From the UHGV virus genome UHGV-1607642: a stretch of DNA of 21,789 nt; one strand, given 5' to 3'. This DNA comes from a virus. A program made the translations under genes and the position numbers. The notes under the pieces are model-generated. The model was not told the DNA's origin and searched no databases. It was given only the letters and a program-made list of their open reading frames with translations. Positions 1,517 to 16,745 of this stretch are shown here, in pieces. Positions within the stretch are counted from its first letter, which is position 1; each line of letters opens with the position of its first letter.

Positions 1517-3076
1517 TTACTCTCTATCCAAAACAGTGAAATCGAATGTGCTGCCAACCGGCAAGACCCCCTCGGCAAACCCAGGCGTCGTGTCGATAAT
1601 GTGTTTCCGCTCATATGAATGCGACATGAGGTATTTGTTGCTCACGTCGATGAAGTCGGTAATAAAGCACACGTTAGCCTGATTTTTCTTGGCTCGTAAG
1701 CCACGACCGACACGCTGTCTCATTTCAACTTCTGCTTTCCCGCCACCACCCAGAATCACCGCGCCTACGCTTGGAACGTCGACACCAACATCCAGAATGG
1801 TTGAACCAATGAGAACATCTATCTTGCCTGCCGCCAGACTATTAAGTTTTGCTTGTCGGGTAGTCTGGTTTGATTCTCCGTAGATGAAATCGACCTTGAG
1901 GCCACTCTCTTTCATCATTTCCATCAAGATCTGACCATGACGCTTCAGACGAACCAATGTCATACAGTTCAGACCGTGACTCTTGTACATTAGCGCTTCA
2001 CGCACAATAGCTTCGTTGCGGCCCAGATTATAGACGATGCCTAACTGATAGGCTTTCTGGTAAGCCGTGCTCATTCCAACCCGAAAATTCAGGTGTTTTG
2101 AAGCAAGTTCGGCTCTAATCCGCGCCTCATCTGGAGTGTACGCGATTTTATGATATAAAAAGTATGGTTTCGCTAAAATACCTCTGTCGATCAAATATTT
2201 CTCCGTTACTTTTATCTCGATGCGACCCGCAACGGCCATGAGACGCATATTTGCTTCAGTCGAGTCCTTCATGAACGGCGTAGCTGTCAGCGCCAGACGG
2301 TAGTCGGCATTGATGCACAACCGGGCGATGTCGTAGAAGTTAGAACCAGATGATTCGTGTGCCTCTTCCAGAATCAGCAGAGAAACGCTGGACAGGAAGC
2401 GTTTAACCAGTTCCCGGCGCTTCAGGTGGTACTGTTTTTTCTCCGGTGATGCGTCGCGCGGTGGCTCTTCGAGAAAACTGGCCAGGGTCTGCACCGTGGC
2501 AACGTTGATATGGCGCGAGACCTGGAACTCACCCGATCCAATCACCCCAACTCTCTGACCTTTCAGCCACGGCTCGCCATTCTCCGCGCGGTAGTCGATG
2601 GATTTCTGGAAGTTCTCTGCCATCTGGAACATCAGAACCGATCGCGTGGTTAAAAACAGCGTCATACGACCAATGCGAGCAGCAGCCTTACACGCTACGT
2701 TCGATTTACCGCCACCCGTCGCAATCTGGGCAATCATCATCCCTTCGCGCACCAGTGTTTCCACTGTCTGATCCTGATACGCATAGTCCGGGTTATACGG
2801 GAATGGGTTAACTACCGGGTTCGGCTTGCCCAGCGCGGGAGCTTTTTCCTTGCGCACATGCACGCATTTGATGCCAGCTTTCAGAAGGTTGGCTGCAACT
2901 GGCTTCGCAAACCCAGCCGGGAACGCGTTTTTGCTCCAGTTGAACATCGTGCTGGTTCCTTTCCAGTCCCCAGCCTCCACTTCATAGCTCAACATCTCCT
3001 GAACGAGCCGCTTCACGTTGTCATCAGCGCTAGAAATCAGCGCATTGACTGCATTCGATACAATCCGAACTGTCAT
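1517..3076 (-). CDS. SF2 DExH-box helicase family protein (519 aa)
   Basis: Motif I ATGGGKS (Walker A), motif II LILEEAHESSG (DExH), motif III LTATP, motif VI QRVGRGLR, all read directly from the translation. SD AGGAAAGAGG upstream of ATG 3076. Confidence 0.85.
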   Translation of the reverse strand: MTVRIVSNAVNALISSADDNVKRLVQEMLSYEVEAGDWKGTSTMFNWSKNAFPAGFAKPVAANLLKAGIKCVHVRKEKAPALGKPNPVVNPFPYNPDYAYQDQTVETLVREGMMIAQIATGGGKSNVACKAAARIGRMTLFLTTRSVLMFQMAENFQKSIDYRAENGEPWLKGQRVGVIGSGEFQVSRHINVATVQTLASFLEEPPRDASPEKKQYHLKRRELVKRFLSSVSLLILEEAHESSGSNFYDIARLCINADYRLALTATPFMKDSTEANMRLMAVAGRIEIKVTEKYLIDRGILAKPYFLYHKIAYTPDEARIRAELASKHLNFRVGMSTAYQKAYQLGIVYNLGRNEAIVREALMYKSHGLNCMTLVRLKRHGQILMEMMKESGLKVDFIYGESNQTTRQAKLNSLAAGKIDVLIGSTILDVGVDVPSVGAVILGGGGKAEVEMRQRVGRGLRAKKNQANVCFITDFIDVSNKYLMSHSYERKHIIDTTPGFAEGVLPVGSTFDFTVLDRE

Positions 3077-3122
3077 AAACCTCTTTCCTTCGTGCCTTTT
3101 GTATGGTAATTGGCTATTATGG

Positions 3123-3140
3123 TAAGTAAGTACTTATACA
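3123..3140. repeat. Degenerate copy of the TAAGTA-N6-TACTTA element (contains perfect 10-bp palindrome TAAGTACTTA, 3127-3136)
   Basis: TAAGTAAGTACTTATACA sits in the 64-bp divergent intergenic region and abuts ATG 3141. Confidence 0.5.
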
Positions 3141-3839
3141 ATGGATTGTATCAGAATTATGGGTGTGAAAATTACGATTCTGCAGGTGGAAGTCGCGAAC
3201 CTGCGTCCGAATCCCTGGAATACCAACTCCGTTGGGGCGCAAAACTTCGAAAAACTGAAAGGCTCTATCGAAAAATTGGGCTTTTTTAAGCCAATTCTGG
3301 CGCGGGAGTTGGACGGGGGCATTTTTGAGATCCTCGGTGGTGAACACCGCTGGCGTGCCGCGATGGAGCAGGGCATTTCAACGGTTCCCGTCATCTCCGT
3401 GGGCAAAATTAACGATCTGGTGGCCAAACAGATTTCCCTCGTCGACAACGAGCGCTACGGCGAAGACGATCAGGTCGCTTTGCAGCGCTTAATCGAAGAA
3501 ATCCAGTCTGAAATCGACTACCGGTTGTCCGATATCGCCCCGTATGACGACGAAATGGCGGCAACACTCGCCAAAGCGTCCGTTACCGATCTTGAAGCGC
3601 TGGAAGCGCTCTCCCGTGGCGATGACGAGCCGGTCGATGAGGACAAACGCGAGAAAACCGAGCGAGTCGGCGCTGAACACCAGACGATGCGCTTCAAGGT
3701 GACGTTTGATGCGTCAGATCGCGTCGCCGACACCATCAAAACCATCATCAAAGAGCAGGGAATCAATACCGGTAACGAAATGGAGAACGCCGGGGAAGCC
3801 CTGGTGTGGCTGGTCGACTACTACAAGGAGCGTATGTAA
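3141..3839 (+). CDS. ParB/Srx-like N-terminal domain protein 1 (232 aa)
   Basis: ParB-type motif FEILGGEHRWRAAMEQG followed by an acidic C-terminal half. No clear SD; start could also be ATG 3159. Confidence 0.7.
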   Translation: MDCIRIMGVKITILQVEVANLRPNPWNTNSVGAQNFEKLKGSIEKLGFFKPILARELDGGIFEILGGEHRWRAAMEQGISTVPVISVGKINDLVAKQISLVDNERYGEDDQVALQRLIEEIQSEIDYRLSDIAPYDDEMAATLAKASVTDLEALEALSRGDDEPVDEDKREKTERVGAEHQTMRFKVTFDASDRVADTIKTIIKEQGINTGNEMENAGEALVWLVDYYKERM

Positions 3840-4507
3840 TGACCAAAAACTTTGAAATCGTCTATCGAAACCCGGCAGAACTCATCCCGTATGAGATGAA
3901 CGCCAAAAAACATGACGAACAGCAGATCCGCGATCTGGCGGCCGCCATCAAAAAGCGCGGTTTTGACCAGCCGATCACGGTCGACAAGCACGACGTCATC
4001 ATTACTGGCCACGGTCGTCGCGAGGCGGCTCTTCTGGCTGGTCTGGAGCGTGTGCCGGTCATTGTTCGCGACGATCTGAGCGAAGAAGAAGTGAAGGCTA
4101 AGCGTCTGGAAGACAACCGCCTGGCCAGTATTGACTACGACGCCATCAAATTGCAGCAGGAACTGGAATCCCTGGTGCTGGGCGATGTCGAGGTCTTCGG
4201 TTTTGAAGAGCGCGAGCTGAACGTGCTTGTCGGCAGCATGACCGAAGAGATGGAAACCGGCTCTCTGGTGCTCGATCTGGGCGAAGAGACGGAGCGCCAG
4301 AAGGAAGAGCACACCGAGATCAGTCGCGAAGTGGCCTCTGAAGAAGTCCGCGTCATCGACGTATTGGGCTTTAAAACGCTCCCTGCTGGCTCTGCCATTG
4401 TGGTTGGGGATTTGCTTGCCCACATGGAAGAAATCACGGGAGAGAGCGGGGTAGACGCTTTCGTGGCGTATGCGGAGAAAGTTTCTTCTGGGGAGCTGGC
4501 CGCATGA
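3839..4507 (+). CDS. ParB/Srx-like N-terminal domain protein 2 (222 aa)
   Basis: ParB-type motif VIITGHGRREAALLAG with acidic C-terminal half. ATG overlaps the upstream TAA by 1 nt (ATGTAATGA); the track ORF begins further upstream at a non-ATG codon. Confidence 0.7.
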   Translation: MTKNFEIVYRNPAELIPYEMNAKKHDEQQIRDLAAAIKKRGFDQPITVDKHDVIITGHGRREAALLAGLERVPVIVRDDLSEEEVKAKRLEDNRLASIDYDAIKLQQELESLVLGDVEVFGFEERELNVLVGSMTEEMETGSLVLDLGEETERQKEEHTEISREVASEEVRVIDVLGFKTLPAGSAIVVGDLLAHMEEITGESGVDAFVAYAEKVSSGELAA

Positions 4508-5142
4508 GCAAATACACCATCAACGTATCGTTTCAGACCCGCGTGAACAAAACCACGCGCACGCTGGAGATTGCCGAATCGTTCGGTCTTGGCCTGGACG
4601 AAAAAGAGTGGACGCTTTACGACAATCTGGAGCTGGAAGTGAAGCAGGGCGATGTGGTGTACATCACCGGCCAATCCGGTTCCGGTAAATCCGTTGTGCT
4701 GCGCGAGCTGCAACGCCAGATGAAGGATGAAGGGCTTTCTGTAGCCTCCATCGATGACTTTGCCTTCGACAATGAGGTTAACGTCATTGACCAGCTGGGC
4801 AAAACCACCAGCGAAGCGCTGGGGCTGCTGTCTATGGCCGGATTGAATGACGCCTATCTCTTTGTGCGTAAGCCATCCGAGATGTCTGACGGCCAGAAAT
4901 ACCGTCTCAAGATCGCCAAGCTGATCGAGTCCGGCGCGAAAGTCTGGGCTGCCGACGAATTTGGCGCTGTTCTCGACCGTGTAACCGCCCAGGTTGTGGC
5001 GTCGAACCTCCAGCGTGCCGCCCGTAAGGTTGGTGCGACGGTAATGGTGGCGACGACCCACGAAGACCTGAAGAACGCGCTGCGCCCGGATATGCAGATC
5101 ACCAAGCACTACAAAGAACGCGTGAAGGTGGAATATGCCTGA
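4504..5142 (+). CDS. Minimal ABC-type ATPase (212 aa, nucleotide-binding domain only)
   Basis: Walker A GQSGSGKS, signature-like SDGQKYR, Walker B VWAADEF, D-loop GAVLD, H-loop ATTHED. Start overlaps the upstream stop (ATGA); SD GGGAG upstream. No transmembrane partner gene. Confidence 0.75.
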   Translation: MSKYTINVSFQTRVNKTTRTLEIAESFGLGLDEKEWTLYDNLELEVKQGDVVYITGQSGSGKSVVLRELQRQMKDEGLSVASIDDFAFDNEVNVIDQLGKTTSEALGLLSMAGLNDAYLFVRKPSEMSDGQKYRLKIAKLIESGAKVWAADEFGAVLDRVTAQVVASNLQRAARKVGATVMVATTHEDLKNALRPDMQITKHYKERVKVEYA

Positions 5143-5389
5143 TTTGAAGATCGTAGAGCTGAAGCCATCGAAAGAGGCTGACAACAACAACGTTGAAGTC
5201 ATCCGCCTGCTGGAAGAAGCACTCCAGTACGCCAGAGAAGGCAAAAGCCAGAGCCTGGCACTGCTGATGATCAACAACGACGGCAGTGTGCTGGATTGCT
5301 GGCATAACGGTGGGCGTCCATACGTCATGGTTGGGGCGATGGAATCGCTTCGCCTGGACTTCATCAATGCCAATATCGAGCGTAGGTGA
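5135..5389 (+). CDS. Small hypothetical protein (84 aa)
   Basis: ORF overlaps the ATPase stop by 8 nt; SD AAGGTGG upstream. No recognisable motif. Confidence 0.5.
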   Translation: MPDLKIVELKPSKEADNNNVEVIRLLEEALQYAREGKSQSLALLMINNDGSVLDCWHNGGRPYVMVGAMESLRLDFINANIERR

Positions 5390-5394
5390 TCGAC

Positions 5395-6285
5395 ATGACA
5401 GGCATCATCATCAAACGCTACCGCCCGGAAGAGTTCCCGCGTCATCTGGACTTTCTGGAGCGTATGACCGTTACCAAAGGCACGGTTGAAGACTGGCACG
5501 CGCTGAAGTCGCTGCACTACAAGACGGATGGTAAGCCGTTCGCGCCAACGTATTATCGCTGCGAACTGGACGACCGGCTGGTGGGCGTCGTGGTTATGGC
5601 TTACCCGAAACTGCTGCTGGCGCCTCGCCATCGCATGTTTCCTAAGCTGAAGCCAACCACCAATACCACCGTGGCCAACCAGTATTGGGGCCGGTACGTG
5701 AACAACAACTTTGCCGTGATCAGCCGTTCCGTTGTTGACACTCAGTACCGCGGTGTCGGCGTCTCCTATCGAATGATTAACCTGGTTAGCAGGATGCACG
5801 ACCGGCCAATCATCGAGATCCAGTCGTCGATGAGCAAATACAACCCGTTCGCCATGAAAGCAGGGTTCCAGTTCATCCGTCAGGAGCGTCCGAAGAGCTA
5901 TGAGAGTGCGTTGCGCGTCTTCCAGCGTCATTTCCGTTCCGACCCTGGCGACAACGAAGCGATCGTCAAAGAGCTGTTTGCCATGAGTGAGTCTCGCCGT
6001 CGTCGTGCGCTGCGTGATCTGGTCGCTGACTACCACAAGAACAGTTCCCTGGCCAAAGCCGGGCGTAATCGTGGCACGACGATTCAGGACATTGCCGACA
6101 GCCTGGTGGACGAGGCCAGCATCGTGAAGCTGCTCAAGGACATTCACAACCTGAGCTTCACGTCTCCGCTGTATGGCGTGTACCGAAACCCGGACTTTGG
6201 TCGTCAGCTGCCGGACACGCTGCCACTGCTGGCATTCGACAAACAGCCTTTGAATAAACCTCTTGAAATTGCATTACCGGCATAA
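5395..6285 (+). CDS. Hypothetical protein with a GNAT-like acetyltransferase motif (about 296 aa)
   Basis: Start at ATG 5395 with SD AGGTGA 6 nt upstream. Segment AVISRSVVDTQYRGVGVSYRMINL fits the GNAT motif A (R/Q-x-x-G-x-G/A), read by eye; the ~130-aa C-terminal extension is unassigned. Confidence 0.5.
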   Translation: MTGIIIKRYRPEEFPRHLDFLERMTVTKGTVEDWHALKSLHYKTDGKPFAPTYYRCELDDRLVGVVVMAYPKLLLAPRHRMFPKLKPTTNTTVANQYWGRYVNNNFAVISRSVVDTQYRGVGVSYRMINLVSRMHDRPIIEIQSSMSKYNPFAMKAGFQFIRQERPKSYESALRVFQRHFRSDPGDNEAIVKELFAMSESRRRRALRDLVADYHKNSSLAKAGRNRGTTIQDIADSLVDEASIVKLLKDIHNLSFTSPLYGVYRNPDFGRQLPDTLPLLAFDKQPLNKPLEIALPA

Positions 6286-6294
6286 GGATTTGCC

Positions 6295-6561
6295 ATGACG
6301 TTGACCGACAAACAAAAAGACATCATCAAAACCATCAATTTAGGCCATGAGCGTGGGCATCTGCTCGATCTGGACGAGCTGCTTGAAGTGCTGCCGTACA
6401 AAACGACCAAACAGAGTATGCAGTTCTCTATCCGCGCACTGGTGAAAAAGGGGCTGGTGGAGAAAGGAATGTGCCGCCAGCGCGGTGATTCCGGCTACCA
6501 CCGTCGCACGCTGGGACTGACCACGTTAGGTCGTGCCAGAGCCAAATTACTGGTGATGTAA
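6295..6561 (+). CDS. Small winged-helix-like DNA-binding protein (88 aa)
   Basis: ORF with SD AAGGA. Size and basic C-terminal half suggest an HTH/wH regulator; the fold assignment is an inference. Confidence 0.45.
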   Translation: MTLTDKQKDIIKTINLGHERGHLLDLDELLEVLPYKTTKQSMQFSIRALVKKGLVEKGMCRQRGDSGYHRRTLGLTTLGRARAKLLVM

Positions 6562-6586
6562 GTCGGTCTGGGAGCCAGTTTGAGAG

Positions 6587-6641
6587 CCTGCTTCCGTATA
6601 TATAAATACTAAGTGACTTATTAAATATATACGGAAGCAGG
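6587..6641. promoter_or_regulatory. Large perfect inverted repeat (17-bp arms, 21-nt spacer) with a nested TAAGTgACTTA palindrome
   Basis: CCTGCTTCCGTATATAT ... ATATATACGGAAGCAGG. The spacer contains TAAGTGACTTA (6610-6620). No flanking T-tract, so it is not a typical intrinsic terminator. Confidence 0.6.
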
Positions 6642-6756
6642 TTCTGAATACTCCCCAGCCCGGTTTTAAACACCCAGAAAACAAATTGGTTAGGCACTGA
6701 ATTAAACAAGTTGTTTAGGAGCGCAAGGATGCGCTCTGAGTGTTTTAGAGGGATCT

Positions 6757-7398
6757 ATGACTGTAGAAAAAGACGAGAGCAAAACTCGCCTGACACCAGC
6801 TGAGTGGGCAGAAGCCGAAGCGAAGTGGACTTCCGGCGAATACACACTCTCCAGGCTGGAGGAAGAGTACGGCATTCGTCGTGAAACGCTCTCCAGACAT
6901 TTCAAAAAGCGTGGATTAGAGAAAGGCGCGGACTCCGTTGGGAAGATGGTGCGCGAGTCGCTCAAATCCGACGCAGAGCTGCGTGCGAAGGCGCGTGCAG
7001 AGAAAATCGAAGAGCGCCGGACTCGTTACGACGATTGGGCGTTCGCACTCGGTCGTATGGTGATGCATGAGGTGGCCACAGCCAAGAAGGACGGCAGGCC
7101 ACTGGCAGCCATCGAAGATGACCTGAAGAGTCTCCAGCGTGCCAGCGGCACACTCGCTAAGTGCTTCGAAATATCGTCGAAAGCGCTCGGTATGGATCGC
7201 GTGGAGAACGAGGACGACGAAATCCCGAACCTGGTATTTGGCGAACTTACGCCTTCCCAGGTGGCGCAGCTGCGTAAGGAAGATGATGAGCCGGATCTGA
7301 TTGATGACGATCTGCTTGAGTCACTCGAAGAGGAAGCACTGAGCGAAGCTGAGGGCGATTCTGAAGCGTCTGGTGATGAAAGTGATGGGAGCGTCTGA
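6757..7398 (+). CDS. Terminase small subunit (213 aa)
   Basis: Sits immediately upstream of the large terminase. N-terminal HTH-like segment YTLSRLEEEYGIRRETLSRHF and strongly acidic C-terminus. SD AGAGGGA upstream. Confidence 0.7.
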   Translation: MTVEKDESKTRLTPAEWAEAEAKWTSGEYTLSRLEEEYGIRRETLSRHFKKRGLEKGADSVGKMVRESLKSDAELRAKARAEKIEERRTRYDDWAFALGRMVMHEVATAKKDGRPLAAIEDDLKSLQRASGTLAKCFEISSKALGMDRVENEDDEIPNLVFGELTPSQVAQLRKEDDEPDLIDDDLLESLEEEALSEAEGDSEASGDESDGSV

Positions 7399-7400
7399 CT

Positions 7401-8657
7401 ATGGCCATCCCGTCGTCTCTGAGTCTCGTACAGCTGCATTCTGGGCAGATGCAAGTCTTCCAGTCGCCACATCGTTTCAAAGTGGTGTGTGCGGGTCGAC
7501 GCTGGGGTAAATCCCGGTTGTCGATCTCCACCATCATCCGCGCGGCAGCCAAAGAGAAGAAGCAACGTGTCTGGTATGTCGCACCGACTTACCAGATGGC
7601 TCGCCAGATCTTGTGGGATGACCTGCAGGAAGTTCTGCCGCGCAAATGGGTTCGTAAGAAAAACGACACCACGATGACCATCGTGCTGAAGAACGGCTCT
7701 GAAATCGCGCTGAAAGGTGCGGATAAGCCCGATACGCTTCGTGGTGTGGCACTGCACTTTGTGGTGCTCGATGAATTTCAGGATATGAAGCCTGACACCT
7801 GGTACAAGGTACTGCGTCCGACACTGTCCTCCACCCGTGGCGGTGCGCTGATCATCGGTACGCCAAAAGGCTTCTCCGAGTTCCACAAGCTGTGGACTAT
7901 CGGTCAGAACAAAGATTTGCAACGCAAGGGGCAGTGGAAGAGCTGGCAGTTCGTTACGGCCGATTCTCCGTTCGTACCGAGCGCGGAAATCGAAGCAGCG
8001 AAGAACGATATGGACCCTAAATCGTTCGCACAGGAATACCTGGCCAGCTTCGAAAACATGTCCGGACGCGTTTACTACCCGTTCGACCGCAATGTGCATG
8101 TGAAGCCACTCCAGTTCAATCCGAAACTGCCGATCTGGGTTGGTCAGGACTTCAACATCGACCCTATGTCATCGGTCATCCTGCAACCGCAGCCAAATGG
8201 TGAACTGTGGGCTGTGGACGAATTGGTGTTGTTCTCTTCTAACACGGCTGAAGTGTGTGACGAGCTGGAGCGTCGATACTGGCGCTGGAAATCTCAGGTC
8301 ACTATCTTTCCTGACCCGGCAGGTGCGTATCGCCAGCACGCACGCGGCGAATCTGACGTCGACATCTTCAAAGAGAAAGGTTTCCTTCGAGTCGACTATC
8401 CGAAGAAACACCCACCGATCGCAGACCGTGTGAACGCCGTGAACCGCATGTTAATGAGCGCCTCGGGCGAAACACGGTTGTACGTCGATCCGAAGTGCAA
8501 ACACTTAATCGACTCACTGGGGAAGGTGATCTACAAGCCAGGCTCACGCGATATGGATAAGACAGGCGGCGTCGAGCACAGTGCGGATGCGTTGGGGTAT
8601 CCGGTTCATCGTAGGTATCCAGTGAAAAATCGTGTTATTCTTGGTGGATCCAGATAA
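7401..8657 (+). CDS. Terminase large subunit (418 aa)
   Basis: Walker A VVCAGRRWGKS and Walker B HFVVLDEF in the N-terminal ATPase; C-terminal nuclease-like acidic motifs (WVGQDFN, IFPDPAG, HSADALG). SD GGGAG upstream. Confidence 0.9.
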   Translation: MAIPSSLSLVQLHSGQMQVFQSPHRFKVVCAGRRWGKSRLSISTIIRAAAKEKKQRVWYVAPTYQMARQILWDDLQEVLPRKWVRKKNDTTMTIVLKNGSEIALKGADKPDTLRGVALHFVVLDEFQDMKPDTWYKVLRPTLSSTRGGALIIGTPKGFSEFHKLWTIGQNKDLQRKGQWKSWQFVTADSPFVPSAEIEAAKNDMDPKSFAQEYLASFENMSGRVYYPFDRNVHVKPLQFNPKLPIWVGQDFNIDPMSSVILQPQPNGELWAVDELVLFSSNTAEVCDELERRYWRWKSQVTIFPDPAGAYRQHARGESDVDIFKEKGFLRVDYPKKHPPIADRVNAVNRMLMSASGETRLYVDPKCKHLIDSLGKVIYKPGSRDMDKTGGVEHSADALGYPVHRRYPVKNRVILGGSR

Positions 8658-8672
8658 GTAAGTACTTACTTA
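8655..8672. repeat. Perfect 18-bp palindrome TAAGTAAGTACTTACTTA (TAAGTA-N6-TACTTA element)
   Basis: Self-complementary over all 18 nt; it contains the TerL stop codon and lies just upstream of the portal start. Confidence 0.8.
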
Positions 8673-8674
8673 AC

Positions 8675-10264
8675 ATGGAAGAAAGGCAAATGGAATTGAC
8701 TGATAAGCAAATCAAAGACCTTGTGGCACGACGCCACCCTGAATATGAGAAGAAAAAAGAACATTGGGACTTCCTCGCCAGCACCTACGCTGGCGGGCGT
8801 GCCTGGTTCAACGACAATATCTTCCGTTACTTCAAAGAGGGCGATCAGGAGTTCAAAGAGCGCCTGGAACGCGCTTATCGCTTCAACCATACGCGCGAAG
8901 TGGTAAACCTCATCAACAAATACCTCTTCAAAGAGGTCATTCACCGCAACACTGATGAAGCACCGGAGCAGATCCGCAATTTCTGGAAGCGAGCCACGCG
9001 CCAGAACGCCTCCATCGATGCGTTTATGGCGGCTATCGATCTGCAATCATCCATTTATGGCCGTATTTGGGTTGTCGTGGATAGCACGATGAACGTCGAT
9101 GTTGAGTCTGTTGCAGACGAGAAGAAAAATGATGCGCGTGCCTACGCTTACTGGATTTCGCCACAGCAGCTGCTTGATGTTGCCTGGGATGAAGATGGCA
9201 ATATGTTGTGGGCGTTGATTGTTGAAATCGCGCGCGACGACGAAGATCCGTTCACATCAACCGGGCAGGAATACCAGCGTTACCGTCTGTGGACGCAAAA
9301 CGAGTGGTATCTGTTCCGTGAAGAAGTGAAGAAAGGTTCAGGGAATAGTGGTCGTCGTCAGGCCAAAGTCGTTCTGGAGGATAGTGGCAATCATAATCTT
9401 GGGGTGGTGCCGGTGTTTCCGGTGGATTGCATTGGTGAAAGCGATTCTCCGTATTTTAGCCCGTCGTTAATTGACGATATCGCCTATCTTGACCGCGCCG
9501 TGGCCAACTACCTGTCGAACCTTGACGCGATTATTCAGGATCAGACATTCAGCCAGTTAGCGATTCCGGTTCAGTCCTTGCTGCCGGGCGATGAAAACCA
9601 CACCAAAGTGCTCGAAATGGGGACAAAACGTGTCTTCACCTTCGATTCTGAGAGCGGTAATCAGCCATTCTATCTGTCTCCAGACCCGAAACAGGCTCAG
9701 ATGATCATCACCACGATTAAGACGGTGATTAATGAGATCTACCATTCCGTTGGTGTGGCTGGTGAGCGAACCAAGCAGGATAACGCGCAGGGTATCGACA
9801 ACTCTTCGGGGGCAGCGAAGATGTACGACTTCCAACGTATTAACAGTCTGTTGGTGACAAAAGCAGAGCGCCTCGAAAGGGCAGAACGCCAAATGATGGA
9901 GTTGGCTGCGAAATGGATGGGCATCGAATTGGATGAAGACCACTCTCTGATCGCTTACCCGGAGAGTTTCGATATTCGTGGTCTGACTGACGAATTTGCC
10001 GTCGCTGAGAAATTGTCGCTGTTACAGGCGCCTGATTCTGTACGTCGTCATCAGATGGAAATGCTCATAGAAAAGATCTTCCCGAATATTTCCGAAGCGA
10101 TGCAAAAGGAATTTAAAAAAGATCTCTTGAAATTTCCTCTAAAAAATGCTCCTGGCGCCCTTGAAAATAAGTCAGTACTTACTTATGATCGAGATACAGT
10201 CCAAGAAAGCGGACAAGATCAACCCCGAGGGAATGGGGACTCATCTACTCAAGAGACCGAGTGA
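8675..10264 (+). CDS. Portal protein (about 525-529 aa)
   Basis: Large ORF directly after TerL and before the scaffold and capsid genes; assigned by position and size. Start ambiguous: ATG 8675 has no SD, ATG 8690 has AAAGG 3 nt upstream. Confidence 0.7.
   Translation: MEERQMELTDKQIKDLVARRHPEYEKKKEHWDFLASTYAGGRAWFNDNIFRYFKEGDQEFKERLERAYRFNHTREVVNLINKYLFKEVIHRNTDEAPEQIRNFWKRATRQNASIDAFMAAIDLQSSIYGRIWVVVDSTMNVDVESVADEKKNDARAYAYWISPQQLLDVAWDEDGNMLWALIVEIARDDEDPFTSTGQEYQRYRLWTQNEWYLFREEVKKGSGNSGRRQAKVVLEDSGNHNLGVVPVFPVDCIGESDSPYFSPSLIDDIAYLDRAVANYLSNLDAIIQDQTFSQLAIPVQSLLPGDENHTKVLEMGTKRVFTFDSESGNQPFYLSPDPKQAQMIITTIKTVINEIYHSVGVAGERTKQDNAQGIDNSSGAAKMYDFQRINSLLVTKAERLERAERQMMELAAKWMGIELDEDHSLIAYPESFDIRGLTDEFAVAEKLSLLQAPDSVRRHQMEMLIEKIFPNISEAMQKEFKKDLLKFPLKNAPGALENKSVLTYDRDTVQESGQDQPRGNGDSSTQETE
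10168..10185. repeat. TAAGTC-AGTACT-TACTTA element copy (1 mismatch) inside the 3' end of the portal ORF
   Basis: TAAGTCAGTACTTACTTA lies 79 nt upstream of the portal stop codon. Confidence 0.6.
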
Positions 10265-10286
10265 TAAGTAACGAAAAGGTATTTCT

Positions 10287-11183
10287 ATGAATCTGTGGCA
10301 AATGCTTATGGCCCGTCGTGGCCTGATGGATGTAGCCGAAGCGCATGAGCGCGGCGGCGCTGGTGGCGGTGCTCCTGCTGGAGACAATGAGCAGAGCATT
10401 CAAGACCCAGGCAAACAGGGCGAGCAAAAAGAGCAACCGAAGGGTGACGACGACGAGTATGCCGGTATGACTCAGGAAGAGTTGCTGGCAGAACTGCGTA
10501 AGTCTAAGAAAGCCGGTGCTGATCTGTTGAAAGAGAACATGAAGCGTAAGGAGAAAGAGCGCACATTGGCCGATCAGCTGGCTCAGTACGGTGATATTGA
10601 CCCGACGCGTGCTCGTCAGCTTCTCGAAGCTGAACAAGCCGCAGAAACCGCACGTCGGGAGGCGGAGCAGGCTGAACTGGAACGTCGTGGTGAGTTCGAT
10701 GCTGTGAAAAAGCAGATGATCGAAGCACACCAGACTGAACTGGCACAGCGCGACGAACGCTACTCCGCTCTGGAGAGCGAGAACGCCGCATTGAAGGCTC
10801 AACTGGTCGAAATGACTGTTGGTGTTTCCTTCAGCAGTTCTGCTTTCCTGCGTGACAAAGTTCTGATGACTCCGGCTAAGGCACGCGTTATCTACGGCTC
10901 TCATTTCGAAGTGGGTGAAGACGGTAGTGTTGTGGGCTTTGATAAGCCAGCCGGTCAGAAAGAACGTGCAGTTCTGGTTGACGGTGAAGGCAAGCCGTTA
11001 CCGTTCGAATCCGCGATTGAGCGCATTCTGCGTGCAGATCCGGAAGCTGACGCACTGTTGCGTAGCGAAGCCAAGCAGGGTGCTGGTTCCAATAGCAAAC
11101 CGACCCACAAAGTAAGCCAGCCGAAGAGCAAGTCGACTATGGATAAGTTGACCTCCGGTCTGGGAAAAATCGGACTCAAGTAA
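10287..11183 (+). CDS. Scaffolding protein (298 aa)
   Basis: Sits between portal and major capsid genes. Charged, Ala/Glu/Gln/Arg-rich helical sequence typical of scaffolds. SD AAAAGG upstream. Confidence 0.65.
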   Translation: MNLWQMLMARRGLMDVAEAHERGGAGGGAPAGDNEQSIQDPGKQGEQKEQPKGDDDEYAGMTQEELLAELRKSKKAGADLLKENMKRKEKERTLADQLAQYGDIDPTRARQLLEAEQAAETARREAEQAELERRGEFDAVKKQMIEAHQTELAQRDERYSALESENAALKAQLVEMTVGVSFSSSAFLRDKVLMTPAKARVIYGSHFEVGEDGSVVGFDKPAGQKERAVLVDGEGKPLPFESAIERILRADPEADALLRSEAKQGAGSNSKPTHKVSQPKSKSTMDKLTSGLGKIGLK

Positions 11184-11209
11184 CATCTTAAATCATAGGG
11201 AAATGAAAG

Positions 11210-12085
11210 ATGCCATTACTGCGTGATGAAGCTGAAAAGCTGTCTAATAACGAACTTGAGCAGGGTGTGATCGAGACCATCATCGATCGCGATGACCTGT
11301 TCGCTATTCTGCCTTTCATGAAGATTAATTCTAAGGCATACCTTTACAACCGCGAAGCTACCCTGAGCGAAGCTACCTTCATTGATGTGAACGACACCAT
11401 CACTGAAGGCGCAGCAACCTTCAGCGAACACGTTGCGAAGCTACGTATCCTGGCAGGCGACGTAGACGTCGACAAATTCCTGGCGACCACTATGTCCGAC
11501 ACCAACAACCAGCTGGCAATCCAGGTTCGTCAGAAGGTGAAAGGTCTGGCTCGCGCATTCCGCCGCAACCTGATTCTGGGCGACTCCAGCACCAACACCA
11601 AAGCGTTCGACGGTATTCCGAAACTGATGCACGACGATCAGAAGATCGACATCGAAGGCGCTTCCATGACCTTCTCCATGTTCGACGAACTGGTCGACGC
11701 GGTGAAAGATCTGGGTGCGGACTGCATCATGATGCGCTCCGAGCATCTGCGTGCTTATCGCGCTCTGCTGCGTACCGTTAATATCGGCCCGTCCGAAATT
11801 ATGATGGAAAACTTCGGTCGACCGATGTTGTGCCACAACGGTGTACCTTTCATCGTGAACGACTTCATCCCGACTGACGCGGGCAAAGCAAGCATCTATT
11901 GTCTGCACCTGTCCGAAGAGAACGGTGTGACCGGTCTGTATGGCGGTGAAAACGCTGGTATCGTTGTTGAGAACATCGGTACTGTTCAGAACAAAGACGC
12001 AACCCGTACCCGCGTTAAGTGGTACTGCTCTCTGGCGAACAAGCACGACAAAGCTATCGCCGCGCTGACCAATGTAAAAATTTGA
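11210..12085 (+). CDS. Major capsid protein (291 aa)
   Basis: Assigned by position after the scaffold, by size, and by the strong intrinsic terminator that follows. SD GGGAAATGAAAG upstream. Confidence 0.7.
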   Translation: MPLLRDEAEKLSNNELEQGVIETIIDRDDLFAILPFMKINSKAYLYNREATLSEATFIDVNDTITEGAATFSEHVAKLRILAGDVDVDKFLATTMSDTNNQLAIQVRQKVKGLARAFRRNLILGDSSTNTKAFDGIPKLMHDDQKIDIEGASMTFSMFDELVDAVKDLGADCIMMRSEHLRAYRALLRTVNIGPSEIMMENFGRPMLCHNGVPFIVNDFIPTDAGKASIYCLHLSEENGVTGLYGGENAGIVVENIGTVQNKDATRTRVKWYCSLANKHDKAIAALTNVKI

Positions 12086-12098
12086 TCAGAATACTAGG

Positions 12099-12116
12099 TA
12101 AGTAGTTATCTACTTA
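12099..12116. repeat. TAAGTA-GTTATC-TACTTA element copy
   Basis: Arms TAAGTA and TACTTA with 6-nt spacer, between the capsid stop and the terminator. Confidence 0.7.
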
Positions 12117-12120
12117 ATAT

Positions 12121-12146
12121 GGGTGGGCTATACGCCCACCTTTTTT
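12121..12146 (+). terminator. Intrinsic terminator after the major capsid gene
   Basis: GGGTGGGC tatac GCCCACC followed by TTTTTT. Confidence 0.75.
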
Positions 12147-12159
12147 GTAGGAGCGATAA

Positions 12160-12588
12160 ATGCCAGAACAAAAGATGAAAATCATGGAGGAGACGTTTGC
12201 GGATTTCACAGGGCATATGTGCCGTGCCGGATTCACCAACTCCGTCTCCAACGAGCCTCTGAGCGAGCGCCAGCAGAACCATCTTGCGGCTTGCTTCCGG
12301 ACAGTTCCGTTCACGCAGTCTGTCAGCGTGGAGTCTGTTGCTCTGACTCCTGATTCTGTCTCTGTTGAGAAGGGGAAGTCAGTCAAATTGCGAGTTGATG
12401 TGCAACCGTCAAACGCAACCAATCAAAAAGTCACCTGGACTTCTCAAAATAGCGACAAAGCGACCGTGGATCAGAACGGTAACGTAGTTGGCGTAGCCGT
12501 TGGTACGGCAACCATTGAAGTGGCTTCACATGATGGCAGTCACAAAGCGACTGCGACCGTTGAAGTGACCGCAGCACCGGCTGCGTAA
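12160..12588 (+). CDS. Big_2 (bacterial Ig-like) domain protein, likely capsid decoration protein (142 aa)
   Basis: C-terminal ~85 aa show the Big_2 pattern (KVTWTSQNSDKATVDQNGNVVGVAVGTATIEV). SD AGGAG 8 nt upstream of the ATG. Confidence 0.65.
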   Translation: MPEQKMKIMEETFADFTGHMCRAGFTNSVSNEPLSERQQNHLAACFRTVPFTQSVSVESVALTPDSVSVEKGKSVKLRVDVQPSNATNQKVTWTSQNSDKATVDQNGNVVGVAVGTATIEVASHDGSHKATATVEVTAAPAA

Positions 12589-12631
12589 CCAACATATGGG
12601 CAGCATAGCTGTCCATTAAGTGAGAAGAAAA

Positions 12632-13066
12632 ATGAAACCAGCAAAAATTCGTTTATTGGAGCCTCAATTTTTGGGGTACACGGGGATTCTCTGCGGTATC
12701 AAGTTTGTAGACGGTATCTCAGTTGCTGAACTGCCATTCGTCGATCAGCAGCGGATTTGTGCTTCCATGCGTGCGACTACCGTTGAAGGTAAAAATGTAT
12801 CTCCTTCTGCCGCGTACAGTAGCCGCAATAACTTGACTGCGGAAGACATTGTCGAGACGCCAGCCCCGGATATTGTGCCAATGAAACGTGGTGCGGCTGA
12901 AACAAAGCCCAAACCGGTACAGCGCTTTACTCGTGAAGAACTGGAGTCGATTGCGGACTGTGAAGGTATTGCGGGTCTTCGTCAGATCGGCAACCAAATT
13001 GGCGTGAAAGCCAAAGGCATCGTTGAAATGATCGAGGGTATCCTGAAAGCACAGGGCGGTGAGTAA
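12632..13066 (+). CDS. Hypothetical structural protein (144 aa), possible head-tail connector component
   Basis: ORF in the head-to-tail junction region. ATG 12632 chosen over the upstream non-ATG start of the track. Function assigned by position only. Confidence 0.45.
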   Translation: MKPAKIRLLEPQFLGYTGILCGIKFVDGISVAELPFVDQQRICASMRATTVEGKNVSPSAAYSSRNNLTAEDIVETPAPDIVPMKRGAAETKPKPVQRFTREELESIADCEGIAGLRQIGNQIGVKAKGIVEMIEGILKAQGGE

Positions 13067-13899
13067 TGGCACAGATCGACACGTACCGTAGCGGGGAAGC
13101 CGTTTCCCTGTCGTTTGCATTTAACGTTCTGGATATTGAGTCGGCAACGTATACCGTCAGAGATGGCGCGGGTTCGATCATCGTTGATAACGAACCTCTC
13201 GATATTACTGAGGGGCAGATGTCCATTCCGGTTGTCGTGTCGGCCGAACACAACCTGCTTGCCGACAAAGAGCGCGATCTGCGTTACGTCCTCGTCAAAG
13301 CGGTGGCATCCGGTCTGACGCATGAAGAGCGCAAGATGTACGTTCTGCTAAATAGCTTCGAGCTGTCTATCCCAGGCCAGTCATTCGCAACGGTCGCAGA
13401 CGCCCAGATGCAAGCCATCGACATGCTGAACGGCGACACTCTGTTGGCTGATGGTGACGGGCTGATGCGCAAACGTCTCATTGAGGCCACCAGACGCGTC
13501 AAAACGCTGCCGTTTTCAATCCGCAAAGTCCTTCGTATCGATTTCGATCGGTACGACCGTCCACAAAACATGCTGAACGTATATGACGTACCGTGGGGTG
13601 CTGACGGGGCATATCGTCACGATCTGATTGATTGGGAGAAGATGACGCAGGATAAATTCGACGAATTCCCTGACTACTTCAAACAGACATTAATGCTGGC
13701 CGTGGTTAATGAAGCCTGCGAAATCGCTAACGGCAATGACGTAGCGGCAGCTCGCGAGGACGGCATCCTGTCTGAATCCATTGGTGAAACGACAAATATG
13801 TACCGCACCGGCAAAGCGGCAAATTTACATGTGGCTCGCAGTACCTGGAGACTGCTGGTCAGCTACATCAACAACCGCATGATTGTTCGCCGTGCGTAA
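13066..13899 (+). CDS. Hypothetical structural protein (277 aa), possible head completion/adaptor protein
   Basis: ATG overlaps the upstream stop (TAATG); SD GGTGAG. Function assigned by position only. Confidence 0.5.
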   Translation: MAQIDTYRSGEAVSLSFAFNVLDIESATYTVRDGAGSIIVDNEPLDITEGQMSIPVVVSAEHNLLADKERDLRYVLVKAVASGLTHEERKMYVLLNSFELSIPGQSFATVADAQMQAIDMLNGDTLLADGDGLMRKRLIEATRRVKTLPFSIRKVLRIDFDRYDRPQNMLNVYDVPWGADGAYRHDLIDWEKMTQDKFDEFPDYFKQTLMLAVVNEACEIANGNDVAAAREDGILSESIGETTNMYRTGKAANLHVARSTWRLLVSYINNRMIVRRA

Positions 13900-13996
13900 C
13901 GCCAGTCGCATTATTTACTTCTGGTCGAAAGGCTCAAGACGCACAATCGCGCCTTCGCCTGGTAATGCGTGCGGATGCCAACCACAGGGAGAGTGC

Positions 13997-14341
13997 ATGA
14001 ACATTTCATGGCAAGCAGAGATGGCGATTTACCGTCTGGGTTCGAAGAATGTCTACGGTGAAGCGCAATTGCAGTTCGTCAGGAAGACGAACGTCGGTGT
14101 CGTTAAGTTTGAACAAAGTAATGAGAAGTCATCGGTACGTGCGGACAGCTCCGGCAGTCGCGGAAAAGCCAATATGGAATTGTTCGATGTCGTTCTGGTG
14201 GTCCCACTTGAGGCCGCAGTGCAACTTGATGACGTTCTTATTCTGGAGGGGCTAAAGCTGAAGGTATCCAGTGTGCATCGTCGTTGGGGGTTACGTGGAC
14301 GCCCTGGTCATCTGGAAGTAGGGGCAAACATATGGGCCTGA
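13997..14341 (+). CDS. Hypothetical structural protein (114 aa)
   Basis: Internal ATG 13997 with SD GGGAGAG chosen over the track start at 13883. Overlaps the next gene by 10 nt. Confidence 0.4.
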   Translation: MNISWQAEMAIYRLGSKNVYGEAQLQFVRKTNVGVVKFEQSNEKSSVRADSSGSRGKANMELFDVVLVVPLEAAVQLDDVLILEGLKLKVSSVHRRWGLRGRPGHLEVGANIWA

Positions 14342-14805
14342 AGTATGACTCGCATCAGTTTAAGCGTGCTGGCGACAGACTCAATAACAGCCAGAAAGCC
14401 TTTAAGCGTTATCTCATTCGTGACATGGAGAAGCTGGCGCGTCTGGTTGAGCGTCTGGCGCGGGCAATGGCTCCGCTGGAGACTGGCTCACTCGAAAGCG
14501 CGATTTTCGCGAGAGTTGTCAAAGAGGGCTATACGGGGCTGCGTATTGAGTTATCGGTGTCTGGGGCTAAACCGCGCGAAGGGAACCCTGGTGTTGAGGT
14601 TGGCGATTATGCGGAGTACATGGAGTTGGGCAAGTATCGTCTCGGCTATCTCTCCCGCATGAAGAGCGTCACCAACCCGCCAGTTGCTGGTGTGAAGCCA
14701 CGCGTTGGGCCTTTGTTCCTTGAAAGAGCGGCACAGGTCAGTGAGAAACAGTTCGCTCAGACGATAGCTGAAGCAGCAAGGAAAGCAGGTTTTACGAGAG
14801 GTTGA
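14332..14805 (+). CDS. HK97 gp10-like tail completion / head-tail joining protein (157 aa)
   Basis: Motif LARAMAPLETGSLESAI matches the recalled gp10-family signature A-x-x-A-P-x-x-T-G-x-L-x-x-S-I. Start at ATG 14332. Confidence 0.55.
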   Translation: MGLKYDSHQFKRAGDRLNNSQKAFKRYLIRDMEKLARLVERLARAMAPLETGSLESAIFARVVKEGYTGLRIELSVSGAKPREGNPGVEVGDYAEYMELGKYRLGYLSRMKSVTNPPVAGVKPRVGPLFLERAAQVSEKQFAQTIAEAARKAGFTRG

Positions 14806-14806
14806 T

Positions 14807-15190
14807 GTGTTTATTGAAGCATTTGCGAGCCTGATGCAGAAGGCGAAGATCGGCACACTCGGCACTGACATTTTCTGTCACTACATGCCAGCCAATGTGA
14901 AGTCCGGCATCCTGTTGGTTACTCCCAATACGGGGATCGCCATTGACCATGAGTTAAAAGGTTTTTATCACGACTCTTTTACCGTCATCGTGCGTAATGC
15001 GACGATCACAAAGGCGGTGGCGAAAGCCAATAAGATCATGGACATGTTTCCGGTCGAGGAAACCGTGTCAGATGGCGTTTACTTCCGGTTGGTACGACCA
15101 ATGTCGATGCCGATAACTTATCCAAAAAACGAAGGCTCGTTGATTGAAGCGGGCATCCCGATTGAATTTGCGGGCTATTTGTTGAATTAA
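14807..15190 (+). CDS. Putative tail terminator-like protein (127 aa), by position (gpU-like slot)
   Basis: GTG start overlapping the upstream TGA (TGATGTG), SD GAGAGG. Immediately precedes the major tail gene. Confidence 0.4.
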   Translation: MFIEAFASLMQKAKIGTLGTDIFCHYMPANVKSGILLVTPNTGIAIDHELKGFYHDSFTVIVRNATITKAVAKANKIMDMFPVEETVSDGVYFRLVRPMSMPITYPKNEGSLIEAGIPIEFAGYLLN

Positions 15191-15194
15191 CAAA

Positions 15195-15212
15195 ATAAGT
15201 AAATATATACTT
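15195..15212. repeat. TAAGTA-AATATA-TACTTA element copy
   Basis: Arms TAAGTA/TACTTA with 6-nt AT spacer in the intergenic region upstream of the major tail gene. Confidence 0.7.
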
Positions 15213-15264
15213 ACTATTGGCGCCATGAAGGTGCTGATTTAACGGAAAAAGGAGTTTTCCAACA

Positions 15265-16011
15265 ATGTCCAATACCCATGTAAAAAACATCAAACTTGGC
15301 GCCTGCAAAGTGTCGTTTGGTGGTGTTGATCTGGGTTACACCAAAGGCGGTGTTCAGGTTGAGGTTGCGACCGAAACTCTGAAAGTTACCGTAGACCAGC
15401 TAGGGCAAACCACCATCTCCGAGCTGGTACAGGGCCGTAACATCACTATCACTGCGCCGCTGGCCGAGTCTGTGTTGCAGAATATGGTCGATCTGATGCC
15501 GGGTTCTACCCTGAGTGAAGAAGATAACTCTGTGACCATCACTTCCGCACAGGGCGTCAACCTGATCGACGTAGCTAAAGAGCTGGTTCTGACCCCGCAG
15601 GATACCACCGACTACGTTCTGACCATCCCGAAAGCTGCGACCGCAGGTAACTTCACCATGACCTACCAGTCTGATGATGTTCGCGTGTTCTCGGTTCAGT
15701 TCACCGCTTACCCGGATGACGACGGTATTCTGGGGAAAATGAGCGGCCCAAAGCCGGTTAAATCCGTCTCTATCTCTCCGGATTCTCCGGAAGTTAAAGC
15801 CGGTGAGAGCGTGCAGCTGGCAGCCCAGATCACACCTGCAGATGCCGGCGACAAAACCGGTGTGTGGGAGTCCGACAATCAGGAGAAGGCTACCGTTGAT
15901 CAGACTGGTCTGGTTCGCGGAGTAGCTGAAGGTTCGGCAAATATCTCCTTCACCAGCAATAGCGGCGGCAAGAAAGCGACCAAAGCTGTAACGGTTAATT
16001 CTGCCGAATAA
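15265..16011 (+). CDS. Major tail protein with C-terminal Big_2 Ig-like domain (248 aa), lambda gpV-like architecture
   Basis: Strong SD AAAAAGGAG. C-terminal ~85 aa have the Big_2 pattern (TGVWESDNQEKATVDQTGLVRGVAEGSANISF). Position upstream of the chaperone and tape measure genes. Confidence 0.8.
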   Translation: MSNTHVKNIKLGACKVSFGGVDLGYTKGGVQVEVATETLKVTVDQLGQTTISELVQGRNITITAPLAESVLQNMVDLMPGSTLSEEDNSVTITSAQGVNLIDVAKELVLTPQDTTDYVLTIPKAATAGNFTMTYQSDDVRVFSVQFTAYPDDDGILGKMSGPKPVKSVSISPDSPEVKAGESVQLAAQITPADAGDKTGVWESDNQEKATVDQTGLVRGVAEGSANISFTSNSGGKKATKAVTVNSAE

Positions 16012-16738: not shown

Positions 16739-16745
16739 CAAGGGA

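Follow-up and report, generated by a model that had tools for sequence, protein, structure and literature searches.

Why does the same 18-bp palindrome return at one gene junction after another in a viral genome? The DNA analyzed here, a stretch of UHGV virus genome UHGV-1607642 to which we refer as the window (21,789 nucleotides, i.e., 21.8 kb, 51% G+C), is part of an SSU5-like phage-plasmid. It is 98.8% identical across 21.6 kb to the Escherichia coli plasmid pTB212 (NZ_CP033252.1), and its structural genes are 95% identical to those of Salmonella phage SSU5 and about 80% identical to those of E. coli phage Cyrano and of Klebsiella phage-plasmids. An earlier note on this DNA had described the palindrome as TAAGTA-N6-TACTTA and proposed for it either the role of a regulatory site bound by a dimeric protein or that of an RNA-processing signal. 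Comparing the palindrome, which we call family A, and its neighborhood across related genomes, we put the probability at roughly 60% that the copies are dispersed operators of the phage-plasmid's own XRE/Cro-C1-type immunity repressor, encoded beside the integrase.

A palindrome that recurs at gene junctions

Exact matches to TAAGTA-N6-TACTTA occur three times in the window (8655-8672, 12099-12116 and 15196-15213) against 0.00 expected from 100 dinucleotide shuffles, and six sites are found against 0.18 expected when up to two mismatches are allowed. The shuffles rule out chance or AT-rich composition as the origin of the copies. The consensus is a continuous 18-bp palindrome, TA(A/G)GTAAGTACTTAC(C/T)TA, i.e., (TAAG)2-TA-(CTTA)2, and registers offset by four also score because of its 4-bp periodicity. 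Alignment of all copies from the complete relatives showed that the outer arms are the most conserved (1.3-2.1 bits per position), while the center holds about 1 bit and its central step is always pyrimidine-purine (TA, TG, CA or CG). Pyrimidine-purine steps are flexible in DNA. The N6 center of the 6-N6-6 architecture first described is not free, being conserved as well.

With up to three mismatches to the 18-bp consensus, the window contains five sites (copies 1 to 5, Table 1); four are intergenic and the fifth lies in the last 100 nucleotides (nt) of the portal gene. The recurrence at gene junctions is real, and all copies listed in the earlier note exist, although the copy before the major tail gene had been placed one nucleotide off (15195-15212) and the exact match at the capsid junction has a better register four nucleotides upstream. 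In copy 1 the left arm is good but the right one degenerate; the site occupies the region from which the helicase operon (minus strand) and the first ParB_N gene (plus strand) diverge. Copy 2 is a perfect palindrome that contains the TerL stop codon; it ends 2 nt 5' of the first ATG of the portal open reading frame (ORF) and 20 nt 5' of the ATG annotated as its start in SSU5. Copy 3, with one mismatch, lies in the 3' end of the portal gene as first described, and all five enterobacterial genomes examined share its exact sequence. Copy 4 is flanked by the stop of the major capsid gene (12085) and a hairpin resembling an intrinsic terminator (12121-12141 plus a T run), and this position, with the hairpin after the site, is kept in SSU5, Cyrano, pJN2-26, pABTJ2 (83759) and p107 (79716).

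Dispersal and conservation in related genomes

We scanned four enterobacterial genomes (SSU5, pTB212, Cyrano and pJN2-26), two elements from Acinetobacter baumannii (pABTJ2 and p107.0Kbp, NZ_CP035046.1, hereafter p107) and the virulent Pseudomonas phage nickie, counting non-overlapping sites with up to three mismatches in each genome. The 103 kb genome of SSU5 yielded 23 raw sites against 0.15 expected in shuffles, or 22 once overlapping registers were merged; pTB212 has 24, Cyrano 18 and pJN2-26 23. The centers of 19 of the 22 SSU5 sites are intergenic, in a genome of which intergenic DNA makes up 11.4% (p ~1e-15), and the small-gene region of SSU5 at about 84-99 kb has none. The syntenic phage nickie, whose capsid protein is 53% identical, carries no dispersed palindrome.

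In SSU5, sites precede structural and lysis genes (portal, scaffold, Ig-like protein, major tail, minor tail, tail fiber and holin), but also those for SSB, NrdA, ThyA, a methylase, RNase H, a metallophosphoesterase and the ParB_N operon, as well as several unknown genes near the DnaB/primase/ligase cluster. Most copies in the complete relatives precede replication, recombination, nucleotide-metabolism and lysis genes, and the palindrome is therefore not the signature of a morphogenesis operon that the earlier note had taken it for.

All five window junctions are occupied in each of pTB212, SSU5, Cyrano and pJN2-26. The more distant pABTJ2 and p107 have sites at four of the five and, in place of the portal/scaffold site, one between the scaffold and capsid genes. 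Sites at these junctions are thereby found in relatives from E. coli, Salmonella, Klebsiella and Acinetobacter. The palindrome stands out as a conserved block when the major-tail and capsid junctions are aligned. Absence at orthologous junctions in close relatives had been named beforehand as a finding that would refute the proposal; the relatives at 80-95% nucleotide identity all retain a site.

A probable DNA site rather than an RNA structure

To distinguish the two roles first proposed, we compared the Watson-Crick complementarity of mirrored positions with 2000 permutations of the right arms among sites, in five genomes. Observed complementarity equaled expectation in all five (p = 0.36, 0.72, 0.19, 0.84 and 0.26), and a hint of covariation at positions 3/16 in SSU5 (14 observed vs 9.8 expected) was not reproduced in pJN2-26 (5 vs 9.0). 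The arms fit the common consensus independently and their mismatches are uncompensated. The hairpin right after copy 5 (15219-15235), in contrast, shows compensatory substitutions among four genomes (GCACC/GGTGC, GCGCA/TGCGT and GTGTC/GACAC). The major-tail junction thus provides an internal contrast in which the hairpin keeps its structure and the palindrome keeps its sequence. Since the arms vary independently, with no base-pair covariation, a dimeric DNA-binding protein is favored over an RNA hairpin. The geometry of a dimeric helix-turn-helix operator is accordingly supported, all the more as lineage variants of the palindrome track an XRE-type repressor (see below).

An RNA reading would have the sites serve, within polycistronic transcripts, as AU-rich hairpins for RNase III or RNase E processing, stability or translational control. 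The sites are indeed located at gene junctions, are co-transcribed with the flanking genes, can fold and are in many cases followed by GC-rich hairpins. The predicted RNA hairpins of the sites themselves are nevertheless weak (-3.2 to -8.8 kcal/mol; z-scores -0.1 to -2.4), with AU-rich stems and no U tract of their own, and an Rfam search of the sites returned zero matches. Furthermore, the primary sequence is kept across genera, the whole set switches in concert with a DNA-binding protein, and the copy at the divergent gene pair and the copy at the repressor promoter have no common transcript orientation. Taken with the arm test, these results make an RNA function very improbable.

A GC-rich hairpin, at times with a T run, is often found 2-12 nt downstream of family A sites, the one after copy 4 being strong and terminator-like. 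Should the sites be promoters, transcription would begin at or within these hairpins, which would then form a 5' stabilizing stem or call for terminator escape.

Each lineage pairs its own palindrome with its own putative repressor

The enterobacterial genomes share the motif TARGTAAGTACTTACYTA, with 18-24 sites per genome. In pABTJ2 (42% G+C) we found 29 intergenic sites of a different palindrome, TTAGTAAG(C/T)(G/A)CTTACTAA, against 0.45 expected; written as an 18-mer it reads TTAGTAAGYRCTTACTAA (also TTAGTAAGCGCTTACTAA), and its sites include the helicase/ParB, TerL/portal, capsid-downstream and major-tail junctions. At those same junctions p107 carries a third palindrome, TCAGTCAGTACTGACTGA, with 24 sites and no pABTJ2-type site. 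The p107 motif differs from the enterobacterial one by symmetric substitutions at positions 2, 6, 13 and 17, which turn (TAAG)2 into (TCAG)2. In a cross-tabulation of the motifs, the 18-mer of each lineage is essentially confined to that lineage. A site for a host factor is excluded, because pABTJ2 and p107 share the host species A. baumannii but differ in motif.

Beyond the window, an XRE/Cro-C1-type gene encoding a protein of about 129 amino acids (aa) lies beside a site-specific integrase in Cyrano, pTB212, pJN2-26, pABTJ2 and p107 (Table 1). The XRE proteins are homologous across lineages (Cyrano vs pABTJ2, E = 2e-10), and that of pABTJ2 matches Pfam HTH_3. A PDB sequence search gave zero matches for the XRE protein and for the 88-aa protein encoded in the window. 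Between pABTJ2 and p107 (segments 12618-13961 and 12326-13742), the integrases are 98.5% identical and the adjoining XRE proteins 29% identical, a sharp mosaic boundary consistent with the exchange of an immunity cassette. Along with the half-sites, the putative recognition helices change: (Y/F)(K/E)N(A/P)N(N/I)(L/I)SLIK(S/K)G (YKNxNNLSLIKSG) pairs with TA(A/G)GTAAG, INQNMVSFIVRG with the pABTJ2 half-site TTAGTAAG, and FKRPNVLSMIKSG with the p107 half-site TCAGTCAG.

The lineage-specific palindrome is also present in the promoter region of the XRE gene in every lineage that has the gene, which supports the earlier description of the motif as a phage-specific regulatory signature. Enterobacterial XRE promoters have one site 26-47 nt upstream of the start codon (Cyrano 42604, pTB212 15678 and pJN2-26 90500), located in a conserved island amid diverged flanks in which TTTACA-N16-TAATAT is directly followed by the operator on the repressor strand; there are two sites in this region in pABTJ2 and three in p107. 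The XRE gene was found in 865 plasmids, with a genus distribution among Enterobacterales near that of the major capsid gene, which was found in 964 plasmids, 142 of them from Acinetobacter (about 60% amino-acid identity). It is absent from nickie and from phage SSU5. In an LF82 lysogen, the Cyrano gene CYRAN_45 has been described as a putative master repressor expressed 10-fold above local background (PMC9928086).

These data also bear on whether the copies could be non-regulatory repeats, either miniature mobile or recombination-prone sequences or micro-homology for the exchange of modules. Short identical sequences at module boundaries would favor recombination, and phage-plasmids of the SSU5 group do exchange genes often (PMC11652158). 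However, orthologous junctions are occupied from Escherichia to Acinetobacter, and such shared positions in distant lineages speak for inheritance rather than repeated insertion. No terminal repeats or target duplications were seen, one copy is embedded in the conserved repressor promoter, and the replacement of all copies in concert at the same positions requires selection on trans-acting recognition. We therefore find it hardly plausible that the palindromes are repeats of this kind.

Consensus LexA boxes (CTGT-N8-ACAG) with AT-rich spacers were observed upstream of the integrase beside the XRE gene and upstream of an S24-peptidase gene or a small gene (Table 1). They fit the induction of Cyrano by ciprofloxacin, which is 39-fold (PMC9928086), and suggest an SOS-controlled anti-repressor route.

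Promoter overlap and proposed mechanism

Two of the five window sites overlap a recognizable sigma70-like promoter. The best match in 13.6 kb of the window, TTGAAA-N17-TATGAT (10/12), is occupied by copy 3 throughout the spacer and in the first two positions of the -10 hexamer, and TTGAAT-N18-TATACT (9/12) overlaps copy 5; three of four aligned genomes keep the -35 hexamer of the latter (pJN2-26 has TTGAAC). Matches of at least 9/12 with the palindrome in the spacer lie in sense rather than antisense orientation to the gene by 17:6 in three independent lineages and by 30:8 in five genomes, and one of the 'antisense' matches, in pABTJ2, is actually the promoter of the divergent helicase operon. 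Altered right arms that read TATAAT or TATACT on the gene-sense side are frequent in pABTJ2 and p107.

Under the operator reading, a dimer of the XRE repressor would sit on each 18-bp site with one monomer per (TAAG)2 half-site. At about a quarter of the sites, those that occupy both the spacer and the -10 of gene-sense sigma70-like promoters (10161-10189 and 15182-15211 in the window), binding would occlude RNA polymerase. At the others, in short intergenic gaps near a stop codon, a terminator or a start codon, bound repressor may act as a roadblock or silencer against read-through, a conjecture that draws on the stoperators of mycobacteriophages. Together, some 25 sites would keep replication, nucleotide-metabolism, structural and lysis genes off during the plasmid state, while the copy just downstream of the -10 hexamer of the repressor promoter would provide negative autoregulation, and induction after DNA damage would free every site from repression together. 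We infer each of three elements here: the XRE protein as the binder, repression as the outcome of binding, and the roadblock role.

Several observations weigh against this reading. Pfam gives no match at E <= 0.01 for the XRE protein of the enterobacterial lineage, whose helix-turn-helix assignment comes via the pABTJ2 homologue. Co-variation of motif and repressor comprises three specificity classes only, and other DNA-binding candidates also diverge between pABTJ2 and p107 (27% identity for a sigma-like protein, 36% for the 88-aa family and 56-65% for the ParB_N proteins); co-variation alone therefore fails to single out the XRE protein. A recognizable overlapping promoter is present at about a quarter of sites family-wide, and the rest have no recognizable -35. 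The -10-like hexamers taken alone show no strand bias in the enterobacterial genomes, and we therefore make no claim that all sites are promoters. Any repressor action is conjectural both at copy 4, which has a stop codon on one side and a terminator on the other, and at copy 2, only 2-20 nt away from the start of the portal gene. Finally, SSU5 keeps all its sites despite lacking the XRE gene. We assume that SSU5 is a repressor-deletion derivative that recently lost the integrase/XRE segment, by analogy with D29, a lytic derivative among the cluster A mycobacteriophages that kept its sites and lost its repressor (PMC5712189).

Other candidate binders

Could another dimeric regulator encoded by the phage, i.e., the 88-aa protein, a ParB_N protein (3141-4507) or some other factor, bind the sites as promoter elements and activate or time lytic transcription, on the model of the P1 Lpa late promoters or of KorB-type global control? 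A -35 is missing from most sites, but the end of the palindrome, TAnnnT, resembles a -10, and the right arm turns into TATAAT or TATACT on the gene-sense side in pABTJ2 and p107, both of which would suit activation. In every lineage the ParB_N genes directly follow copy 1, both their products and the 88-aa family do diverge between the two Acinetobacter elements, and the retention of sites by SSU5 without an XRE gene is readily accommodated. On the other hand, nickie lacks dispersed palindromes even though it encodes homologues of the 88-aa protein (gp154) and of the two ParB_N proteins, and the conserved 88-aa helix TKQS.QFSIR.L hardly changes between the enterobacterial lineage and p107, whose palindromes differ. 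In the clearest promoters (TTGAAA-N17-TATGAT/TATCAT), the spacer is already optimal and the -35 good, so that a protein bound in the spacer should block rather than aid transcription. Immunity regions would be expected to switch specificity in this way between close relatives, here next to an integrase that is 98.5% identical, and several sites are too near a start codon, or lie upstream of a terminator, to belong to the promoter of that gene. Taking both sides together, we consider such a regulator unlikely.

Among individual candidates, the 88-aa winged-helix protein, put forward in the earlier note, is disfavored by its homologue at the same position in palindrome-less nickie and by its near-constant putative recognition region across differing motifs. 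The ParB_N proteins are disfavored likewise, both homologues being present in nickie. A promoter for a phage sigma factor was also rejected: pABTJ2 has a gene annotated as sigma-70-family, but its match to Pfam Sigma70_r2 is below threshold (E 0.0026), tblastn finds no homologue in SSU5 or Cyrano, and the motif is symmetric.

Neighboring genes and other elements

The coordinates of the palindromes, of the genes around them and of the elements in relatives are collected in Table 1. Beyond the genes listed, a 670-aa ORF on the minus strand (4135-6147) is antisense to four well-supported plus-strand genes, encoding ParB_N, the ABC ATPase, an 84-aa protein and an ATPase/acetyltransferase-like protein; it is probably spurious, of the kind that long plus-strand coding can generate. 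The 189-aa product of the last gene in the helicase operon matches Pfam Flag1_repress (FljA, phase-1 flagellin repressor) with E = 1.9e-95. FljA represses fliC expression, and the FljA-like protein could serve in host motility control or be a factor acting at the family B palindromes described below. The final ~147 bases of the window (21643-21789) do not align to pTB212, unlike the preceding 21.6 kb, and may mark a mosaic break point past the minor tail gene.

Table 1. Family A palindromes, overlapping promoters, genes and other elements of the window, with corresponding positions in related genomes.
Feature	Position in window	Strand	Sequence or remark	Positions in relatives
Copy 1	3123-3140		TAAGTAAGTACTTATACA; inner 10-bp palindrome TAAGTACTTA at 3127-3136; feature span 3119-3140	Same divergent region: SSU5 99799; Cyrano 105108; pJN2-26 34780; pTB212; pABTJ2 72751; p107 69364
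Copy 2	8655-8672		TAAGTAAGTACTTACTTA, perfect 18-mer palindrome; TerL stop codon TAA at 8655-8657	TerL/portal junction: SSU5 2032; Cyrano 2021; pJN2-26 40581; pTB212; pABTJ2 80083 and p107 76006 (own variants)
Copy 3	10168-10185		TAAGTCAGTACTTACTTA; within portal gene 3' end, 101 nt upstream of scaffold gene	
Copy 4	12095-12116		Best register TAGGTAAGTAGTTATCTA at 12095-12112; other register 12099-12116	
Copy 5	15196-15213		TAAGTAAATATATACTTA; after the stop of gene 14807-15190, ahead of the major tail gene	SSU5 9068; Cyrano 9019; pJN2-26 47137; pABTJ2 87123; p107 82827
Sigma70-like promoter	10161-10189	plus	TTGAAA-N17-TATGAT, 10/12	
Sigma70-like promoter	15182-15211	plus	TTGAAT-N18-TATACT, 9/12	
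XRE/Cro-C1-type gene			Beside site-specific integrase	CYRAN_45 (Cyrano); pTB212 15725-16114; pJN226_0108 (pJN2-26); pABTJ2 13542-13961; p107 13278-13742
LexA boxes			CTGT-N8-ACAG	pTB212 17243, 80701; Cyrano 41046, 89277; SSU5 88011; pJN2-26 88948, 23732
Helicase operon	1517-3076 (helicase, head); 222-791 (FljA-like gene, last)	minus		
ParB_N genes, two	3141-3839 and 3806-4507	plus		
ABC-type ATPases, two		plus	Downstream of ParB_N genes, ahead of 88-aa gene	
88-aa protein	6295-6561			
Long inverted repeat	6580-6648		Arms 6580-6603 and 6625-6648, 24 nt, 92% complementary; 21-nt loop; between 88-aa and TerS-like genes	
Family B palindrome	6702-6718		Core 6705-6715	
TerS-like gene	from 6757			
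TerL	7401-8657			
Portal	8675-10264			
Scaffold	from 10287			
Major capsid	11210-12085		Followed by Ig-like protein and head-tail genes	
Gene upstream of copy 5	14807-15190			
Major tail	from 15265			
Tape measure	16725-21317			

A second palindrome, agaAAACAAnTTGTTTaa (family B), is distinct from family A and has one copy in the window, just upstream of the TerS-like gene. Copies of family B (AAACAAnTTGTTT) number 13 in SSU5, 12 in Cyrano and 11 in pJN2-26, with essentially none in pABTJ2. They lie about 14 nt downstream of sigma70-like -10 hexamers (e.g., TTGGAC-N16-GATAAT), directly before the Shine-Dalgarno sequence, and are concentrated in the small-gene region that is devoid of family A; the two families never share an intergenic gap. 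Family B looks like an operator or an element of the 5' untranslated region belonging to a second regulatory class.

The long inverted repeat ahead of the TerS-like gene contains in its loop, at 6610-6620, the sequence TAAGTGACTTA, which the earlier note had counted as a variant of the palindrome. The sequence is present and related to the family A core, with one extra central base, but its half-sites are spaced differently and it is therefore a related sequence rather than a canonical copy. The repeat is probably a separate element, in which a degenerate site may be embedded. SSU5 has two more copies of it (~33450-33520 and 78300-78350), the deposited genomes of SSU5 and Cyrano both start within its loop, and pABTJ2 has an analogous long inverted repeat around the site at 77601. 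Its role could lie in packaging, in replication or in termination.

Significance and comparison with known systems

SSU5-like phage-plasmids are common in clinical Enterobacterales and Acinetobacter, and a 2024 review of phage-plasmids gives no regulatory mechanism for the SSU5 group (PMC11652158). If the operator reading is true, the master repressor and its full regulon could be read from sequence, immunity or exclusion groups would be predictable from the 18-mer, and repressor-less 'lytic' isolates such as SSU5 would be recognizable as temperate derivatives, which is relevant to proposals for biocontrol or therapy. It would also offer a testable case of some 25 sites and a repressor switching specificity jointly. 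The outcome is a testable regulatory map for a clinically widespread, little-studied group of phage-plasmids. More broadly, and with a little less than even odds in our estimation, the whole SSU5 supercluster, whose members include pHCM2 of Salmonella Typhi, pMT1 of Yersinia pestis and elements of Klebsiella, E. coli, Enterobacter and Acinetobacter, several of them carrying resistance genes, might remain plasmids through the action of a single XRE repressor at about 25 palindromes. These would stand at almost every sizeable lytic-gene junction, late genes included; operators and repressor would switch specificity in concert (e.g., (TAAG)2 to (TCAG)2) and so define immunity groups readable from sequence. 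Such a system would be a Gram-negative, dimer-based counterpart of the stoperators, working beside family B on sigma70-type promoters.

No description of the motif, or of an SSU5, pHCM2 or pMT1 palindrome, operator or repressor, was found in the searchable literature, and an earlier mention is possible in papers outside that search. On balance, we believe that family A joins a kind of system already known, that of dispersed repressor operators, with a motif undescribed in the literature searched. Like those systems, it has numerous sites, mostly in intergenic DNA, with one at the promoter of the repressor gene, and its motif co-varies with the repressor across three classes.

In the Streptomyces phage phiC31, Ingham et al. 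(1994) and Wilson et al. (1995) are said to have described conserved inverted repeats (CIRs), palindromic operators of about 17-18 bp that were first seen at the autoregulated repressor gene, recur in many highly conserved intergenic copies and are bound by the repressor, which thereby shuts lytic genes down. Family A likewise has many conserved intergenic palindromic copies, one of them at the promoter of the repressor gene. The two differ in host phylum, repressor family and sequence, and binding is proven for phiC31, whereas we infer it for family A. The CIRs of phiC31 are concentrated in the early region, while family A also precedes portal, scaffold, capsid-accessory, tail, tail-fiber and holin genes.

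Phage P1, a plasmid prophage of similar size, also has one immunity repressor acting at widely dispersed operators. Its C1 operators are reportedly asymmetric 17-mers at a smaller set of early promoters, with late genes controlled indirectly through the activator Lpa (an account associated with Lobocka et al. 2004). Family A sites, in contrast, are palindromic, and there is no sequence or protein similarity to the P1 system. The Lpa-dependent late promoters of P1 pair a -10 hexamer with an inverted repeat near -22. The geometry is similar, the center of the palindrome lying about 20 bp upstream of the putative start, but family A is not limited to late genes and in that respect does not fit the Lpa class. 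The KorB OB operators of IncP plasmid RK2 and the SopB sites of phage-plasmid N15 are palindromes placed round the plasmid for a global silencer of the ParB family. Family A resembles them in its scattered palindromic sites and in the two ParB_N genes that adjoin copy 1. In the case of family A, nickie has both ParB_N homologues without palindromes, and the partition ParA operon carries family B, not family A.

The stoperators of cluster A mycobacteriophages (L5 gp71) are about 20-30 genome-wide repressor sites, mostly in short intergenic gaps, whose co-evolution with the repressor defines immunity groups; they are 13-14 bp long, asymmetric and orientation-biased, and a monomeric two-domain repressor bound to them stops elongating polymerase (PMC9283540, PMC6550527, PMC5712189). 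Family A shares with them the dispersed intergenic sites, a motif that co-varies with the repressor allele and, in SSU5, an apparent parallel to D29. Unlike stoperators, family A sites are 18-bp palindromes with equally conserved arms and no intrinsic orientation, and they imply a dimer. Defined strictly by an asymmetric site, an orientation bias and a monomer, the stoperator class does not include such symmetric palindromes, and family A should be kept out of it, even if the action at its promoter-less sites may be stoperator-like.

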